A DNA stretch of 63,431 bases from Deltaproteobacteria bacterium (GTDB taxonomy: Bacteria > Desulfobacterota > Binatia > Bin18): positions 1 through 63,431 of the forward strand of contig SHZE01000004.1 of the NCBI GenBank assembly GCA_009692435.1, written 5' to 3'. Positions 5,805-46,157 of the stretch are shown one piece after another. A model generated the notes under the pieces. The model worked only from the letters and a program-made list of their open reading frames with translations, had not been told where the DNA came from and did not search any database. The first letter of the stretch is position 1; the number at the start of each line of letters is the position of its first letter. The translations under genes were made by a program, and so were the position numbers.

Positions 5805-6404
5805 ATGGAACAACAAGAACAGTCTCAGATGTTAGCTGTTGACACCGTTGCCCCCAATTTTCGGCTCGCTTCCGCCCAAGGACATGATATTGCGCTGGAA
5901 GATTATCGTGGGCAACGGAACGTACTGTTGTGGTTCTCTAAGGGCCTCTTTTGCCCATTCTGTCGGCGCTACATGGCGCAATTGCGTCTCGGTTATCAAG
6001 AACTCCAGGCGCGCAACACCGATATTTTGCAGATAACCTGGAGCACCCCGGAGGAGGCCCAGCTCTATTTTCGCCAATACCAACTCTCGTTTCCTTACCT
6101 CTGTGATCCGGAACGAGCGGTATCCCCTCAGTACGGCATCCGTCTCTCACGCGCGGCGATTGGGAAGTTCGTTGCTGGCATGGGGACCAGCATGGTCGCC
6201 ATGGTCAGTGGTCGTTTGTTGCACGGGGAAAAGTCTCCCTCTCCCGTGCCGCACCTCAAACGGTACGGCACGGTCGACATGGAACAGCAAGCGGTCTTTC
6301 TCATCGATAAAGCTGGGATCATTCGTTATGTGCACGCCACTGGTCCTCTTGGCGGCCTTCCGTCTAGTGCCGAATACGTGCGTCAGCTTGATAGGCTTCA
6401 GTGA
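5805..6404 (+). CDS. AhpC/TSA-family (peroxiredoxin-like) redoxin
   Basis: APNFRL...FSKGLFCPFC (CxxC), AVFLIDKAGIIRY. Confidence 0.8.
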   Translation: MEQQEQSQMLAVDTVAPNFRLASAQGHDIALEDYRGQRNVLLWFSKGLFCPFCRRYMAQLRLGYQELQARNTDILQITWSTPEEAQLYFRQYQLSFPYLCDPERAVSPQYGIRLSRAAIGKFVAGMGTSMVAMVSGRLLHGEKSPSPVPHLKRYGTVDMEQQAVFLIDKAGIIRYVHATGPLGGLPSSAEYVRQLDRLQ

Positions 6405-6480
6405 CGGCGATGTCTTCGGTTCTGCACTGGAGGAAAATAATTGCTACGAGCCCCAGCAGCCAATGAAGAAAAAATCCATG

Positions 6481-7014
6481 TTACCGCTTTTCAACGATCA
6501 CATGTTCTTCTGGCAACAGAGACAGTAGTCCAACTAGACTCAATCCACAGCCTTCAGCACAGATGCGAAGCAGGAGGTCGCTCACCAGCCGTTCTTCTCC
6601 TTGTCGATCACGTGCGCCTTTCTGCAACGTCAATGAATAGACCCGGGTCTGTTCGGCTGTGCAGAGTCCAATATGCGCACGGTGGTCGCCTTTCTTAGGG
6701 CGGTCGGTGACGAGGGTGGCCGTGCACGCGAGCCCGATCACTGGCACGGTGTTGTTCTCCCGTAGTGTCGTTGCACGTCGATACGCTGCTTGGGCTAAAG
6801 CCGCAGCGGTCTCCGCGGACACTACCTGCATTGGCGGTGAACCCAAGAATTCCGTGAGCGATTTCTCGCTATATGGCACTAACGCCTCAAGTAGCGTCCG
6901 CGATGCCCCTGGCACGGCGAGTATGTCAGCTACTGCCTGTGCCCCACCCCCGGTGACGACAATCACGGCCATTGTCGGGGTGTCGTGGATTTGGGCGATG
7001 GTTGCTTTGTTCAT
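6481..7014 (-). CDS. CinA/PncC-like C-terminal-domain protein (stand-alone)
   Basis: VTGGG...VPGASRTLLEALVPYS...VSAETAAALAQAA...GLACTA resembles the CinA C-terminal fold; function uncertain. Confidence 0.5.
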   Translation of the reverse strand: MNKATIAQIHDTPTMAVIVVTGGGAQAVADILAVPGASRTLLEALVPYSEKSLTEFLGSPPMQVVSAETAAALAQAAYRRATTLRENNTVPVIGLACTATLVTDRPKKGDHRAHIGLCTAEQTRVYSLTLQKGARDRQGEERLVSDLLLRICAEGCGLSLVGLLSLLPEEHVIVEKR

Positions 7015-7025
7015 GGGGAATGGAG

Positions 7026-7065
7026 CAAATCAAAAGGCAAAAGGCAAAAATCAAAAGGCAAAAAT
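7026..7065 (+). repeat. Heptamer tandem array (CAAAAGG/CAAAAAT) x5, downstream arm of the four-helix-bundle cassette
   Basis: CAAAAGG CAAAAGG CAAAAAT CAAAAGG CAAAAAT at 7031..7065. Confidence 0.9.
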
Positions 7066-7066
7066 G

Positions 7067-7450
7067 TTAGGACAGCGACTCGGGCTTTGTGCTTTTGTCT
7101 TTGCCTTTTGCCGTCGCTACTGCTTTCGAGAGCATGGCTCGGAGCTGGGTAGCTTCATCCAGCAGATCTGTCAGCCGTTCTGAAGGAAGAGGGCGTGCGT
7201 TTATCAGTAGGCGCAGCCAATAATGCGATTCGCGCATTTCTTTCAAGGCGATTTGCAGCTTGTGAACAAAATCTCCTTTGGACTCTGCTCCCTGTGCCTC
7301 TTCGTAATTGGCTCCTACTGACGTTGCACTGCGGAGCAGTTGGTCTCCTATTCGTCTTCCAACAAGAGTTCTTGGCAGAGCTTCGACCAACTTGATGACG
7401 CGTGCTCCGTAATCGAGCAGCCGCTCATCAAGCTCCTGGCGGTCCCCCAT
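7067..7450 (-). CDS. Four helix bundle protein (IVP / 23S rRNA-IVS-like, Avd-like fold)
   Basis: 127 aa; QLLRSATSVGANYEEA...SKGDFVHKLQIALKEMRESHYWL is the family signature. Confidence 0.9.
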   Translation of the reverse strand: MGDRQELDERLLDYGARVIKLVEALPRTLVGRRIGDQLLRSATSVGANYEEAQGAESKGDFVHKLQIALKEMRESHYWLRLLINARPLPSERLTDLLDEATQLRAMLSKAVATAKGKDKSTKPESLS

Positions 7451-7490
7451 TTTTGCCCTTTGCTTTTTGCCTTTTGATTTTTGATTTTGC
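7449..7490 (-). repeat. Heptamer tandem array (CAAAAAT/CAAAAGG variants), upstream arm of the cassette, inverted relative to 7026..7065
   Basis: Minus strand: CAAAAAT CAAAAGG CAAAAAG CAAAGGG CAAAAAT|G; the last unit supplies the ATG. Confidence 0.9.
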
Positions 7491-7491
7491 G

Positions 7492-8358
7492 TTACGTCTC
7501 AAGCATCGCCCGCGCCTCCTCTGGCGTCGCCACCTCGTGCCCCATGCCGGTAATCATGCTGACCGCGCGTTGGACGATCTGCGGATTGGTCAACTGTCCT
7601 TCTCGTGCATACTGATAATCCTCCAATCCGATACGAATGTGACCACCAAGACTGACAATCGTCGGCACGAGTGGCAGATTGTCGCCTCCCAGTGTCGCAC
7701 CAAACCAGTTGCAGCGGACGCCTTTTACCATTTCAAGATACGCTTCCAGACTCTTTAGTGATGGTGGCAAACCGAACGGCAGTTCTGGTCCACCTAGATA
7801 GAACTTGAGCAACAACGGTTCGGTCAGGAGCCCTTGATCCAAGCAGATCAACGCCGCACGGAGGAAGCTCGGATCGAAAATTTGTAGGGTCGGCCGTAAC
7901 CCGAGTTCGCGTGAATGTTCGAGAAAGTAACGGATGGTGTCATACGAATTCTTATAAATGAAGCCGCTGCCGTGCACGGTTTTCGTGCGTGGGTCGTAAG
8001 ACACGAGGTTGACCGATCCCATGTCGCCCGCTCCCAAGTCAGGTTTGGTTGCCGGGTCCTTCGATAGCTCGATAAAATGTTGGAACCGTGATGCCGGATC
8101 ATCCCCGAACGGAAATGTTGGCCACAGCAGTGGTTTACATTTCTCTCGTGTGCGCCGATAGACCTCGGCATAGTACGGTACGTCTTGGACCCATTCCCCG
8201 TTTTCTGGATTGCGCACATGAAAATGGATGAGTGCCGCGCCGGCTTTGCAGGTGGCGACCGCGTCATCGGCTATCTCTTTCGGCGTATACGGAATATGCG
8301 GGTTGAGATTGCGCATTGCATTCCCGTTAATTGCCGATTCGATCATGATTTTGGCCAT
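7492..8358 (-). CDS. Beta-keto acid cleavage enzyme family (BKACE/DUF849)
   Basis: AGAALIHFHVR, GGHIRIGLED, EVATPEEARAML. Confidence 0.88.
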   Translation of the reverse strand: MAKIMIESAINGNAMRNLNPHIPYTPKEIADDAVATCKAGAALIHFHVRNPENGEWVQDVPYYAEVYRRTREKCKPLLWPTFPFGDDPASRFQHFIELSKDPATKPDLGAGDMGSVNLVSYDPRTKTVHGSGFIYKNSYDTIRYFLEHSRELGLRPTLQIFDPSFLRAALICLDQGLLTEPLLLKFYLGGPELPFGLPPSLKSLEAYLEMVKGVRCNWFGATLGGDNLPLVPTIVSLGGHIRIGLEDYQYAREGQLTNPQIVQRAVSMITGMGHEVATPEEARAMLET

Positions 8359-8427
8359 ACGTCCCTCCTTAATTGGGCATTGAAATCTAAACCGCTTCTT
8401 ACTCTATTTCCGGCGGGTGTACTAGCA

Positions 8428-8507
8428 GAAAAATCAAAAGGCAAAAGGCAAAAATAGTGGAAGGGGGAGCTCCAAATCCGCAATCTTAAATCCGCAATCT
8501 TAAATTC
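8428..8507 (+). repeat. Two adjacent heptamer arrays (CAAAAGG type at 8428..8455; AAATCC/GCAATCT type at 8473..8507) overlapping the hisF stop
   Basis: GAAAAAT CAAAAGG CAAAAGG CAAAAAT; CAAATCC GCAATCT TAAATCC GCAATCT TAAATTC. Confidence 0.85.
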
Positions 8508-9321
8508 GGACAGGCACTCCGCGTTTGGCAAGGAACTCTTTACACTCACGAACAGTGTATTCACGATAGTGAAAGATCGACGCCGCGAGTGCCGCATCCG
8601 CGCCGCCAGCAGTCAGACCTTCGTAAATATGTTGGAGTGTGCCGACACCACCAGAGGCAATGACTGGAATAGTGACTGCATCCGCAATCGCTCGTGTCAG
8701 TTCAATGTCATAGCCAGCTTTCGTGCCGTCGCGGTCCATGCTGGTCAGCAGGATTTCTCCCGCGCCATACGATTCCATCCGCCGCGCCCATTCAATGGCA
8801 TCGAGACCTGTCGGTGTTCGCCCACCGTGAATGAAGACCTCCCAGGACAGTGGGCCTGGGGGCTGGGGGCTAGGGACTGGATTTTCTGAACTCGAAACTC
8901 GAAACTCGAAACTCGAAACTTTTCGTTTCGCATCAATCGCCACTACGATACATTGCGAGCCGAAACGCTCGGCGGCTTCTTTCACGAACTCCGGACGACT
9001 GACGGCGGCGGTGTTGATCGACACTTTATCCGCGCCAGCATTGAGCAAGTCACGAATATCTTGGACCTCGTGCACTCCGCCACCAACAGTGAGCGGCATA
9101 AACACCGTTTCCGCGGTTCTCCGCACAACATCAAGGATAATTTTGCGCTGTTCGTGTGAGGCCGTGATATCAAGAAAGGTCAATTCGTCGGCCCCTTCTT
9201 CATCATAGCGCTGCGCGACTTCGACGGGATCGCCGGCATCGCGCAGGTCCACAAAGTTCACCCCTTTGACGACCCGCCCATCTTTGACATCGAGACACGG
9301 AATAATGCGCTTACTCAGCAT
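8500..9321 (-). CDS. hisF: Imidazole glycerol phosphate synthase cyclase subunit, with a repeat-encoded loop insertion
   Basis: [40 protein letters not shown]; 273 aa from ATG 9321. Confidence 0.97.
8856..8920 (+). repeat. Heptamer arrays inside hisF: (CTGGGGG)-type x3.5 and (AACTCGA) x4.5
   Basis: 8856..8880 and 8889..8920; translated as [21 protein letters not shown]. Confidence 0.92.
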
Positions 9322-9363
9322 GCCAGGAGTGTTGAAGGTTTCAGGAAAAGAGTCAAGCACTGC

Positions 9364-10278
9364 TTAGGGTTCAAGATGATCCAGCGAGGCCATAGTCGGG
9401 TCCTTTGGCCCCTCGCCTTGCTCCTCTTCGTTTGTGGCCCACACGATTTTGCTGTAATCGAACCGCCCGGACTCGATCATATTAAATTTGACAATCTCAA
9501 AGTAGGGCGAGAGATCAAAGTCTCGTGGAGTAACGAGGCTGTGATGCGGACGGTGAAAGACGAACTGTGACCGCGAGCCATTGGCGAACGAGAGGAGGCG
9601 TTCACGCCACGAGCGGGGGGTGAGCGTGACCGGTTGCGTGGTGATCTGGGGGACTACTGGAAATCCAACGGTATCAAAGGCAGCGGCAATCATACTGGAA
9701 CAAATGACTTGTGTTGGGAGGCGACTACCAAAGTGGAGTGCTTTGCGTCGGAAGCGACGGGGAACAATACTCACCGGAAGAAAATATCGCGCCAGATCGA
9801 AGACATTTTGCAGATCATATTCATGGCCGAGTTGGTGTATGACCTCATCCAGAATATGTTGCACATGATCCTTACGCAGATTGTGCGGACGGCAGACGCG
9901 AATGTTGAGGTTGAGATACTTGGACAACGGCGACACGACGACTCCCCCTTCGACGAGGGCTTCAACTAAGAGATAGTTCGCCTCTTCTCCAAAGGCCGCT
10001 CGCGCTTGGCCAGCTTGAGGGTGGTTCCGTCGGAGTAATTCATCTCCAATGTAGAGCGCGGCATGGGACCAAGAGCTTTGCGTGAGATATTTGATCACCT
10101 CGCTCACGCGCTGTTCACCTTCAAGGAGGATCACGTCCCCCTTTTTAATATGATTTTTCAGTTCGTCTAGATCATTGGGACAGCGTGAGGTGTAGTTCCT
10201 CAGTCGCTTCGTCAAAATCTTGGTGAATTGCCGAATGAGAAAGCGGCGAATGGCTTGCCAGGGAGAAGCGATACGCAT
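9364..10278 (-). CDS. YiiX/YebB-like permuted papain-like (NlpC/P60) amidase
   Basis: KKGDVILL...SSWSHAALYIG...VICSSMIAAAF (His before Cys). Start at ATG 10278; the longer ORF start lies in repeat DNA. Confidence 0.8.
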   Translation of the reverse strand: MRIASPWQAIRRFLIRQFTKILTKRLRNYTSRCPNDLDELKNHIKKGDVILLEGEQRVSEVIKYLTQSSWSHAALYIGDELLRRNHPQAGQARAAFGEEANYLLVEALVEGGVVVSPLSKYLNLNIRVCRPHNLRKDHVQHILDEVIHQLGHEYDLQNVFDLARYFLPVSIVPRRFRRKALHFGSRLPTQVICSSMIAAAFDTVGFPVVPQITTQPVTLTPRSWRERLLSFANGSRSQFVFHRPHHSLVTPRDFDLSPYFEIVKFNMIESGRFDYSKIVWATNEEEQGEGPKDPTMASLDHLEP

Positions 10279-42437: not shown

Positions 42438-42468
42438 GAGAAATGCTTTCTCCGAAAAAGAGGCAAGG

Positions 42469-42503
42469 CAAAAGTCAAAAGGTAAAAATCAAAAGGCAAA
42501 AAT
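42469..42503 (+). repeat. Heptamer array (CAAAAGG/CAAAAAT) x5, with no enclosed gene
   Basis: CAAAAGT CAAAAGG TAAAAAT CAAAAGG CAAAAAT. Confidence 0.88.
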
Positions 42504-46109: not shown

Positions 46110-46157
46110 AAAAAGTCAAAAGGCAAAGCGCAAAAGTCAAAAGGCAAAAGTGAAAAT
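46110..46157 (+). repeat. Heptamer array (CAAAAGT/CAAAAGG) x6 abutting the ATG at 46158
   Basis: AAAAAGT CAAAAGG CAAAGCG CAAAAGT CAAAAGG CAAAAGT GAAAAT|ATG. Confidence 0.88.

Follow-up and report, generated by a model that had tools for sequence, protein, structure and literature searches.

A candidate intervening-sequence-type hairpin cassette with a PF05635 gene between inverted heptamer arrays in a deltaproteobacterial operon

Results

Organisation of the locus

The subject of this work is a stretch of 465 bases within a window of 63,431 nucleotides (contig SHZE01000004.1 of assembly GCA_009692435.1, from a deltaproteobacterium of the Binatia), in which an intact gene of the TIGR02436/PF05635 family of four-helix-bundle proteins lies between two inverted arrays of tandem 7-nt units, called here the 5' arm and the 3' arm (Table 1). 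The 5' arm starts 2 nt (CG) past the stop codon TAA (7494..7492) of a gene for a beta-keto acid cleavage enzyme (BKACE), and its last CAAAAAT unit contains the ATG (7450..7448) of the four-helix-bundle protein gene. At the other end, the 3' arm begins 1 nt after the stop codon TAA (7069..7067), and 16 nt separate it from the ATG (7014) of a CinA-like gene. The cassette occupies the entire BKACE/CinA-like gap, and its elements follow one another in the order arm, gene, inner arm and inverted arm. The inner arm consists of degenerate units which are codons 113-123 of the gene and encode its C-terminal tail, AKGKDKSTKP. This tail lies outside the conserved core of the family and is longer than that of all other members in the family alignment, and its units could allow local pairing with the 3' arm. 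Period-7 arrays were found by the program TRF at 7031-7063 and 7449-7488, and a search with CAAAAGGCAAAA, allowing at most 1 mismatch, gave 14 matches in the window against 0.39 expected, a number that was reached in 0 of 100 shuffles. The layout had been described in an original prediction made from the sequence of this stretch alone, and direct reading of the sequence found that description accurate throughout with respect to the ATG in the last unit, the stop codon 1 nt before the 3' arm and the filled gap; its view of the AKGKDKSTKP codons as degenerate units was likewise confirmed by the sequence and the pattern search.

Table 1. Coordinates of the cassette, its neighbours and the solo arrays of the same unit family in the window
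Feature	Position	Strand	Remarks
5' arm	7449..7490	-	six heptamer units, in gene sense CAAAATC AAAAATC AAAAGGC AAAAAGC AAAGGGC AAAAATG
Four-helix-bundle protein gene (TIGR02436 / PF05635 23S_rRNA_IVP)	7067..7450	-	127 aa, intact
Internal degenerate heptamer units	7083..7110	-	CAAAAGG CAAAGAC AAAAGCA CAAAGCC; orientation as 5' arm
3' arm	7026..7066	-	inverted array, in gene sense CATTTTT GCCTTTT GATTTTT GCCTTTT GCCTTTT GATTTG
BKACE gene, upstream host gene	7492..8358	-	co-oriented with cassette; PF05853, 216 bits
CinA-domain (PncC-like) gene, downstream host gene	6481..7014	-	co-oriented with cassette; weak CinA match, 25.4 bits (cut-off 23.5)
Solo array, same unit family	8428..8453 (also 8435-8453)		between hisF and BKACE; outside cassette
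Solo array CAAAAGT/CAAAAGG/CAAAAAT	42465..42503	+	directly past a gene end; outside cassette
Solo array CAAAAGG/CAAAAGT	46111..46156	+	reaches ATG of next gene; outside cassette

Family assignment and selection on the protein

The protein matched TIGR02436 with 91.6 bits (cut-off 24) over model positions 4-108 of 109, and PF05635 with 71.1 bits (cut-off 33.8). Sequence comparison also matched its residues 8-115 with PDB entry 2RLD (E 1.1e-18), a chain of 121 residues titled 'Uncharacterized protein'. When the gene was compared with its orthologues in two relatives of the same genus (G001 and G002), the ratio of nonsynonymous to synonymous substitution rates (dN/dS) was 0.09-0.10 at a dS of ~2, and the two orthologues differed from each other by synonymous differences only. 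This low ratio therefore indicates that the protein of the window is functional and under purifying selection. The CAAAAGN motif and the complementarity of the arms also persist at a dS of ~2, where neutral sequence would be randomised.

Decay is frequent among the other copies of the gene. Two of the four copies in this genome contain in-frame TAG stops and a third is apparently truncated, and many copies in relatives contain stops as well. Among the stop-bearing copies (C24:2333-2650 and C6:66889-67131 of this genome, together with those of relatives), 9 of the 13 in-frame stops were TAG, 2 were TAA and 2 were TGA; in the copy on contig C6, TAG stands in place of the conserved W of a Y-W-L motif. 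Decay by transitions is the probable cause of the excess of TAG. The closest named relatives of the family genes of this genome were found in metagenome-assembled genomes (MAGs) of Chloroflexia and Thermoflexales.

Association of family genes with inverted arms

The assembly surveyed is a 2.14-Mb MAG, 83% complete, in which the window is contig C19. Inverted heptamer arrays enclose all four TIGR02436 matches in it, and no two of these loci have the same unit: CAAAAGG in the window, GAATGAA on C6, GGTGCTA on C89 and GGCAGAA on C24, where the order of elements is arm-arm-gene-arm. For comparison, the inverted match between the two 100-nt flanks was scored for 1,852 greedily called open reading frames (ORFs) of the genome. 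The median score was 6 and the 99th percentile 10, and only 8 of the 1,852 ORFs reached at least 12. The gene of the window ranked first (28) and two further TIGR02436 loci were among the eight, which leaves 5 of about 1,850 other ORFs; the fourth family copy, a pseudogene missed by the ORF caller, had a flank score of 17. The other high scorers were cases unrelated to the family; of these, one on C86 was set aside as a chance neighbour of an ACGTAAA hairpin, and one on C1 because its 30-nt inverted repeat is not heptamer-based. The latter is a 443-aa gene (C1:8657-9988) flanked by the non-periodic repeat GGAAAACCTGGAAATTGTAGAAAACGAGAAAAATC and its complement, with a score of 21, tied second in the genome.

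The family was present in 24 of 41 related genomes, with up to 12 copies each. Approximately 25 of 29 loci fetched from these relatives were armed with locus-specific units, the two most distant loci being unarmed, and of the further copies from three relatives 19 of 20 were armed. Beyond the relatives, a sample of 79 loci was drawn with a 7-sequence alignment of one subfamily, other than that of the window, from about ten phyla (Chloroflexota, Acidobacteriota, Bacteroidota, Verrucomicrobiota, Planctomycetota, Poribacteria, deltaproteobacteria and others). Inverted flank matches of at least 12 were found at 46 of these 79 loci, as opposed to 5 of 79 controls with mismatched flanks. The autocorrelation of the flanks had a peak at lag 7 only (19.1 and 18.4 matches of 28), whereas other lags, and 316 control segments from the same loci, gave ~11.7 of 28. 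The original prediction had proposed that period-7 inverted flanks be sought at family genes here and in relatives, and that arrays would be commoner near these genes than elsewhere; both were borne out by the counts above. The layout is not a matter of chance. Furthermore, one relative (G016) has 1 array per sampled 100 kb as background, yet carries long arrays at its family genes. Array-poor relatives are still armed at family genes, and therefore the arrays belong to the surroundings of the gene and not to the genome.

Filled and empty alleles at orthologous junctions

BKACE orthologues were found in all 20 relatives searched. In 10 relatives a CinA-domain gene follows within 78 nt, and in six of the 10 it lies 15-27 nt away; these six are more distant and have no array. 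Filled alleles of the BKACE/CinA junction occur in this genome, in its congeners G001 and G002 (75% protein identity, unit CAAAAGT) and, with a truncated gene, in G022 from another genus (59% identity, units CAAAGGG/CAAAAGT). In G003, which is of the same genus as this genome, the junction contains only ATCAAAAGGCAAAA-TTTG-ATTTTTGCCTTTTGAT, in which the distal parts of both arms abut as a perfect small hairpin with no gene. The remaining relatives in which both genes were found encode nothing between BKACE and CinA; in other genera the spacer contains different gene-less hairpins, and G011 and G017 retain remnants of CAAAAGG arrays. The comparison of filled and empty alleles that the original prediction had called for at this junction thus yielded both, including a gene-less hairpin within the genus. 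At the corresponding loci of G001 and G002 (L034 and L037), the 3' arm and the first ~20 nt of the CinA-like gene are tandemly duplicated as a unit of ~100 nt, which yields two 3' arms and a decoy start region.

A second site was available at the junction of the dehydrogenase genes E1alpha and E1beta, which holds the C89 copy in this genome. It was filled in 7 genomes, belonging to 5 genera, while 11 had an empty site with a gap of 10-28 nt, and the empty alleles include members of genera that also have filled ones. Comparison of this genome with G011 placed the insert exactly between the stop codon and a retained 12-nt spacer containing the ribosome-binding site (RBS), ACGGAGCGATCA. Three unit types occur at the E1 site (GGTGCTA, GGGGACC and GGGGATT), and the 5' arms pair with their own 3' arm (scores 11-18) and not with the arms of the other types (5-8). 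At a further locus (L211, G007:C27:4893-5780), a family pseudogene is split by an insertion of ~180 nt with GC-rich palindromes (GCCCGCGCAGGCGGGC…CCCGCATTCGCGGG), which looks like a second, unrelated small element.

Inheritance of gene and arms

The units of the two arms resemble each other more within a locus than between loci: when the 3' unit was reverse-complemented, it differed from the 5' unit of its own locus by 1.42 positions on average and from those of other loci by 3.11. A comparison of whether variant units follow in mirrored order in the two arms had little power, being confined to the 5 loci that passed the filters. The type of unit in turn follows the protein, as protein identity and unit distance were correlated with a Mantel r of -0.41, which was reached in 0 of 2,000 permutations. 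For instance, the closest paralogues found, two pseudogenes at different sites of G007 (79% nucleotide identity), have the unit GATTGCG in common. In the subfamily sampled across phyla the consensus of the unit was T[C/A/T]AG[C/T]NN, with AG in 48-49 of 50 loci, while the units of the subfamily of the window and of the E1-site subfamily were CAAAAGN and GGGNNTN, respectively. The orientation of the gene relative to the polarity of the arms is constant. Because the arms match within a locus and the unit type tracks protein similarity, these comparisons support the view that the gene and its arms are one unit, inherited, gained and lost together.

Heptamer arrays in the genome

TRF found 420 period-7 arrays in the 2.14 Mb, compared with 61 and 128 at periods 6 and 8, respectively. 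CAAAAGG, with 42 arrays, is their most frequent unit; in all, about 430 arrays are present, at a density of ~20 per 100 kb. These arrays have the properties of heptanucleotide simple repeats, in that they consist of tandem 7-nt units, are over-represented and are mostly intergenic. Among array pairs within 3 kb of each other, 42 were inverted and 8 direct, and 32 of the 42 inverted pairs were gene-less hairpins with loops of 8-140 nt. Pairs with long loops (on C43, C105, C85, C11 and C84) were considered as carriers of other cargo and rejected, since they either surround ordinary genes or bring together arms from two separate elements. Two of the four unit types at the family genes belong to the three commonest array families, a proportion estimated to be non-significant if the genes occupy randomly chosen hairpins.

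The hisF/BKACE spacer, in which the nearest solo array of the window is located, contains solo arms, a full CAAAAGG hairpin or ACGTAAA hairpins in relatives, and no four-helix-bundle protein gene was found there in the relatives compared. Heptamer arrays clearly turn over on their own. The original prediction took the solo arrays at 8428, 42469 and 46110 for possible empty sites or scars; an origin as scars of the cassette is unsupported, because the site at 8428 never holds a family gene in relatives and because the genome is rich in arrays and gene-less hairpins regardless.

Transcription and predicted RNA structure

Both neighbours were co-oriented with the family gene at 74 of 102 loci, and the upstream neighbour at 90 of 102. 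Around the cassette, a scan of positions 6400-8600 detected no promoter-like site on the strand of the gene, and terminators were no commoner than in shuffled sequence, although both of these scans give weak evidence. An Rfam scan of 6000-9500 at E values up to 1 gave no relevant family and no rRNA match. The predicted RNA fold of the cassette had an energy of -178 kcal/mol (z = -5.8), and in it the 5' arm pairs with the 3' arm in a closing stem of ~40 bp which includes the AUG. Mismatches were counted across 78 stems with 2,024 paired columns, and in the sense RNA there were 64 G·U and 70 A·C.

RNase III is encoded in the genome. The only RNase III gene of the assembly (C11:68472-69098) has a GAAGAAT/ATTCTTC heptamer hairpin 30 nt upstream (within C11:68307-68440). 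In E. coli, rnc is autoregulated via cleavage of a stem in its own leader, and by analogy this hairpin might be an RNase III substrate.

Absence of mobility functions

The sole ORF of the cassette encodes the 127-aa helical protein, and no transposase is present in it; a reverse transcriptase (PF00078) had no match across the assembly. At the two filled/empty junctions compared, there was no target-site duplication beyond a possible 3-nt AGG at one site. The arms differ between the copies in one genome, which is unlike the common termini of a transposon or a miniature inverted-repeat transposable element (MITE).

Discussion

The reading that we favour, with a probability of roughly 60%, is that the 465-base stretch is a single hairpin cassette of the intervening-sequence (IVS) type, in which a PF05635/TIGR02436 gene lies between inverted, locus-specific heptamer arrays and is inserted in sense orientation in an operon, exactly at the border between a host stop codon and the ribosome-binding spacer of the following gene. 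ORF-bearing IVSs in 23S rRNA were reportedly described in Leptospira by Ralph and McClelland in 1993. The S23p IVS of Coxiella burnetii contains an ORF of the same family in a 28-bp stem, is cut mid-stem by RNase III and is regarded as selfish (Warrier et al. 2016, PMC4990558). The two kinds of element have in common a PF05635 ORF whose complementary ends pair in a long stem (28 bp in Coxiella, ~40 bp predicted here), a size of ~430-480 nt, sense orientation in a host transcription unit, sporadic occurrence and a proposed selfish or mobile nature without a known enzyme. Since the anatomy of the cassette is that of an ORF-bearing 23S IVS, it is therefore read as an IVS-type element located in an operon instead of in rRNA. 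In contrast to the IVSs, the cassette of the window lies between BKACE and CinA-domain genes and not in helix 9, 25 or 45 of 23S rRNA, its arms consist of tandem copies of a locus-specific heptamer, and gene-less derivatives and solo arrays are abundant in its genome. Its protein is also under purifying selection, whereas S23p was reported not to be made in vivo (PMC4990558). What would be new here is an IVS-type element outside rRNA with arms made of heptamer arrays. No literature link between free-standing family genes and heptamer arrays was found, in a search that left subscription journals largely uncovered.

The arms themselves resemble heptanucleotide repeats that have been reported before. 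GGGNATC repeats are over-represented in Xanthomonas and Nostoc (Rehm et al. 2015, PMC4692102), and gene-less heptanucleotide elements occur as inverted pairs in Geobacter (PMC2700814). As in those repeats and the short tandemly repeated repetitive (STRR) sequences of cyanobacteria, the units are 7 nt long, are present in tandem in 4-6 copies, lie between co-oriented genes near stop or start codons and often form convergent inverted pairs capable of hairpins; the difference is that a specific gene family fills the loop here and that the unit type follows the protein subfamily. A keyword search of both texts found PF05635 mentioned in neither PMC4692102 nor PMC2700814. With MITEs and small transposons with terminal inverted repeats, the cassette shares inverted termini, presence/absence polymorphism at orthologous sites and short gene-less derivatives, but no transposase or target-site duplication was found here, and the termini differ between copies and are internally periodic.

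We propose that the cassette lacks its own promoter and would be transcribed by read-through from the host operon, and that the arms would then close the ~40-bp stem in the operon transcript and bury the start codon. By analogy with the 23S rRNA IVSs, host RNase III might cut this stem, and the insert would therefore be tolerated within operons. The complementarity of the arms would be upheld at the DNA level by copying or gene conversion, an oligomeric protein may recognise the heptamer duplex of its own cassette, and gene-less hairpins could arise by deletion of the interior.

Several observations weigh against this interpretation. The genome contains 32 gene-less hairpins and about 430 arrays, yet only 4 family genes, and the same intergenic sites hold different gene-less hairpins in different genera. 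The arrays therefore also live independently of the gene. There is neither a transposase nor a reverse transcriptase nor a target duplication in evidence, nor was any movement observed. Identity between the copies of one genome has a median of ~0.33 and a maximum of 0.85, which marks them as old, and of the four copies in this genome two or three are pseudogenes. In addition, the identity of the orthologues at the E1 site falls with host distance, and thus one ancient insertion followed by many clean losses fits as well as repeated insertion. The mismatches in the stems showed no excess of G·U, although a marked excess would be expected of a stem maintained by selection on the sense transcript, and therefore selection on the RNA stem is not what keeps the arms paired; copying or gene conversion of the DNA, of the kind that preserves terminal inverted repeats, probably maintains their complementarity, the alternative being recognition of a duplex motif by a protein. 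Lastly, the processing of the cassette transcript by RNase III is suggested by analogy only. The original prediction of a mobile or recombinogenic unit accordingly divides into two parts. That the gene and the arrays form one unit agrees with the arming of the family genes, the correlation between unit and protein, and the filled and empty alleles, whereas mobility is left without a transposase, a reverse transcriptase or a target-site duplication to speak for it. We consider mobility of the cassette to be no more than plausible.

The most serious alternative, although an unlikely one, is that the arms belong to the host. The heptamer hairpins would then be autonomous intergenic elements, of the simple-repeat type or similar to repetitive extragenic palindromic (REP) sequences, and the four-helix-bundle protein gene would be a separate insert in or beside them. 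This would account for the many arrays and gene-less hairpins of the genome, for the BKACE/CinA and hisF/BKACE spacers that hold different gene-less hairpins by genus, and for the fact that copies within one genome almost never have arms in common. The orders arm-gene-arm-arm in the window and arm-arm-gene-arm on C24 also resemble the entry of a gene into one arm of an existing hairpin, and gene-less inverted heptamer pairs are known in Xanthomonas and Geobacter (PMC4692102, PMC2700814). However, if the arms were host sequences, it would not be expected that the unit type tracks protein similarity across phyla, with a conserved unit core in one subfamily, that the closest paralogues have a common unit, that array-poor genomes are still armed at the family genes, or that gene orientation is constant relative to arm polarity. 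To reconcile the two sets of observations, each protein subfamily would have to target hairpins with the unit type peculiar to it.

Less probable still is a domesticated host module, in which the hairpin would be an intercistronic element for RNA processing or stability and the protein an RNA- or DNA-binding regulator of the flanking operon, neither of them selfish or mobile. A dN/dS of 0.1 would be expected of such a module, as would the retention of the E1alpha/E1beta cassette in 5 genera with an identity that declines in step with that of the host, the sense orientation in operons and a placement that leaves the downstream RBS intact. These features have to be set against many independent clean losses, even within genera, the frequency of pseudogenes and the scattering of closely related proteins over phyla. 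The host operons are, moreover, unrelated, including BKACE, dehydrogenase E1 and chemotaxis genes as well as cas operons (PMC3936711). Chance juxtaposition in a genome with ~20 arrays per 100 kb, in which CAAAAGG is the commonest unit, can hardly be credited, as it is refuted by the arming of 4/4 family genes against 5 of about 1,850 other ORFs, by the lag-7 periodicity in other phyla and by the recurrence of the layout in array-poor relatives. The weakest alternative is an accessory protein Avd of a diversity-generating retroelement, to which PF05635 proteins are homologous (PMC10053308) and with which they would share a predicted four-helix bundle and putative nucleic-acid binding; it was rejected because the 83%-complete assembly has no reverse transcriptase, the neighbours are metabolic genes and no pair of template and variable repeats was seen.

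Protein subfamilies and unit types go together, which suggests that the protein of this cassette may be a partner of its heptamer duplex, in line with the array binding put forward in the original prediction. A broader and more tentative extension, to which we give appreciably less credence than to the cassette itself, is that PF05635 proteins in general may be sequence-specific partners of their own heptamer duplexes; gene and arms would then be the autonomous form, with gene-less hairpins and solo arrays as its non-autonomous derivatives or footprints, and 23S IVSs would simply be the copies inserted into rRNA. The PF05635/TIGR02436 family is very large and widespread, with solved structures and no assigned function, the excess of heptanucleotides in bacteria is without explanation, and the origin of the 23S IVSs has been open since the early 1990s. 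The architecture of a gene in a heptamer hairpin links these three subjects, and the partner relationship, if true, would join them as one puzzle. There is also a consequence for annotation, as cassettes split operons and occur inside cas loci, where they have been taken as CRISPR-associated: family genes have been located inside cas operons (PMC3936711), and the family is named in a figure legend on CRISPR-linked proteins (PMC10910872).

Other repeats and a conserved leader near the cassette

Further repeats are located upstream of the cassette, in and beside hisF (8500..9360, minus strand). Within hisF, at positions 8852-8920, arrays of AACTCGA (4.6 copies) and GGGGCTG (4.1 copies) are translated in frame as an insertion in a surface loop of HisF; the length and sequence of this loop are highly variable among 19 relatives, and several of the loop sequences look repeat-derived. 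Directly after the hisF stop codon, at 8474-8505, a perfect period-14 array (AAATCCGCAATCTT, 2.3 copies) lies beside the solo CAAAAGG array. Between this region and the start of BKACE, a leader of ~60 nt (8362-8430, minus strand) is conserved across several genera (…CTGGCAC…CCGGAAATAGCGTAAGAAGCGGTTTAGATTT…AAGGAGG). It is located downstream of the variable heptamer hairpins, has no Rfam match and could be a promoter or an element of the 5' untranslated region.

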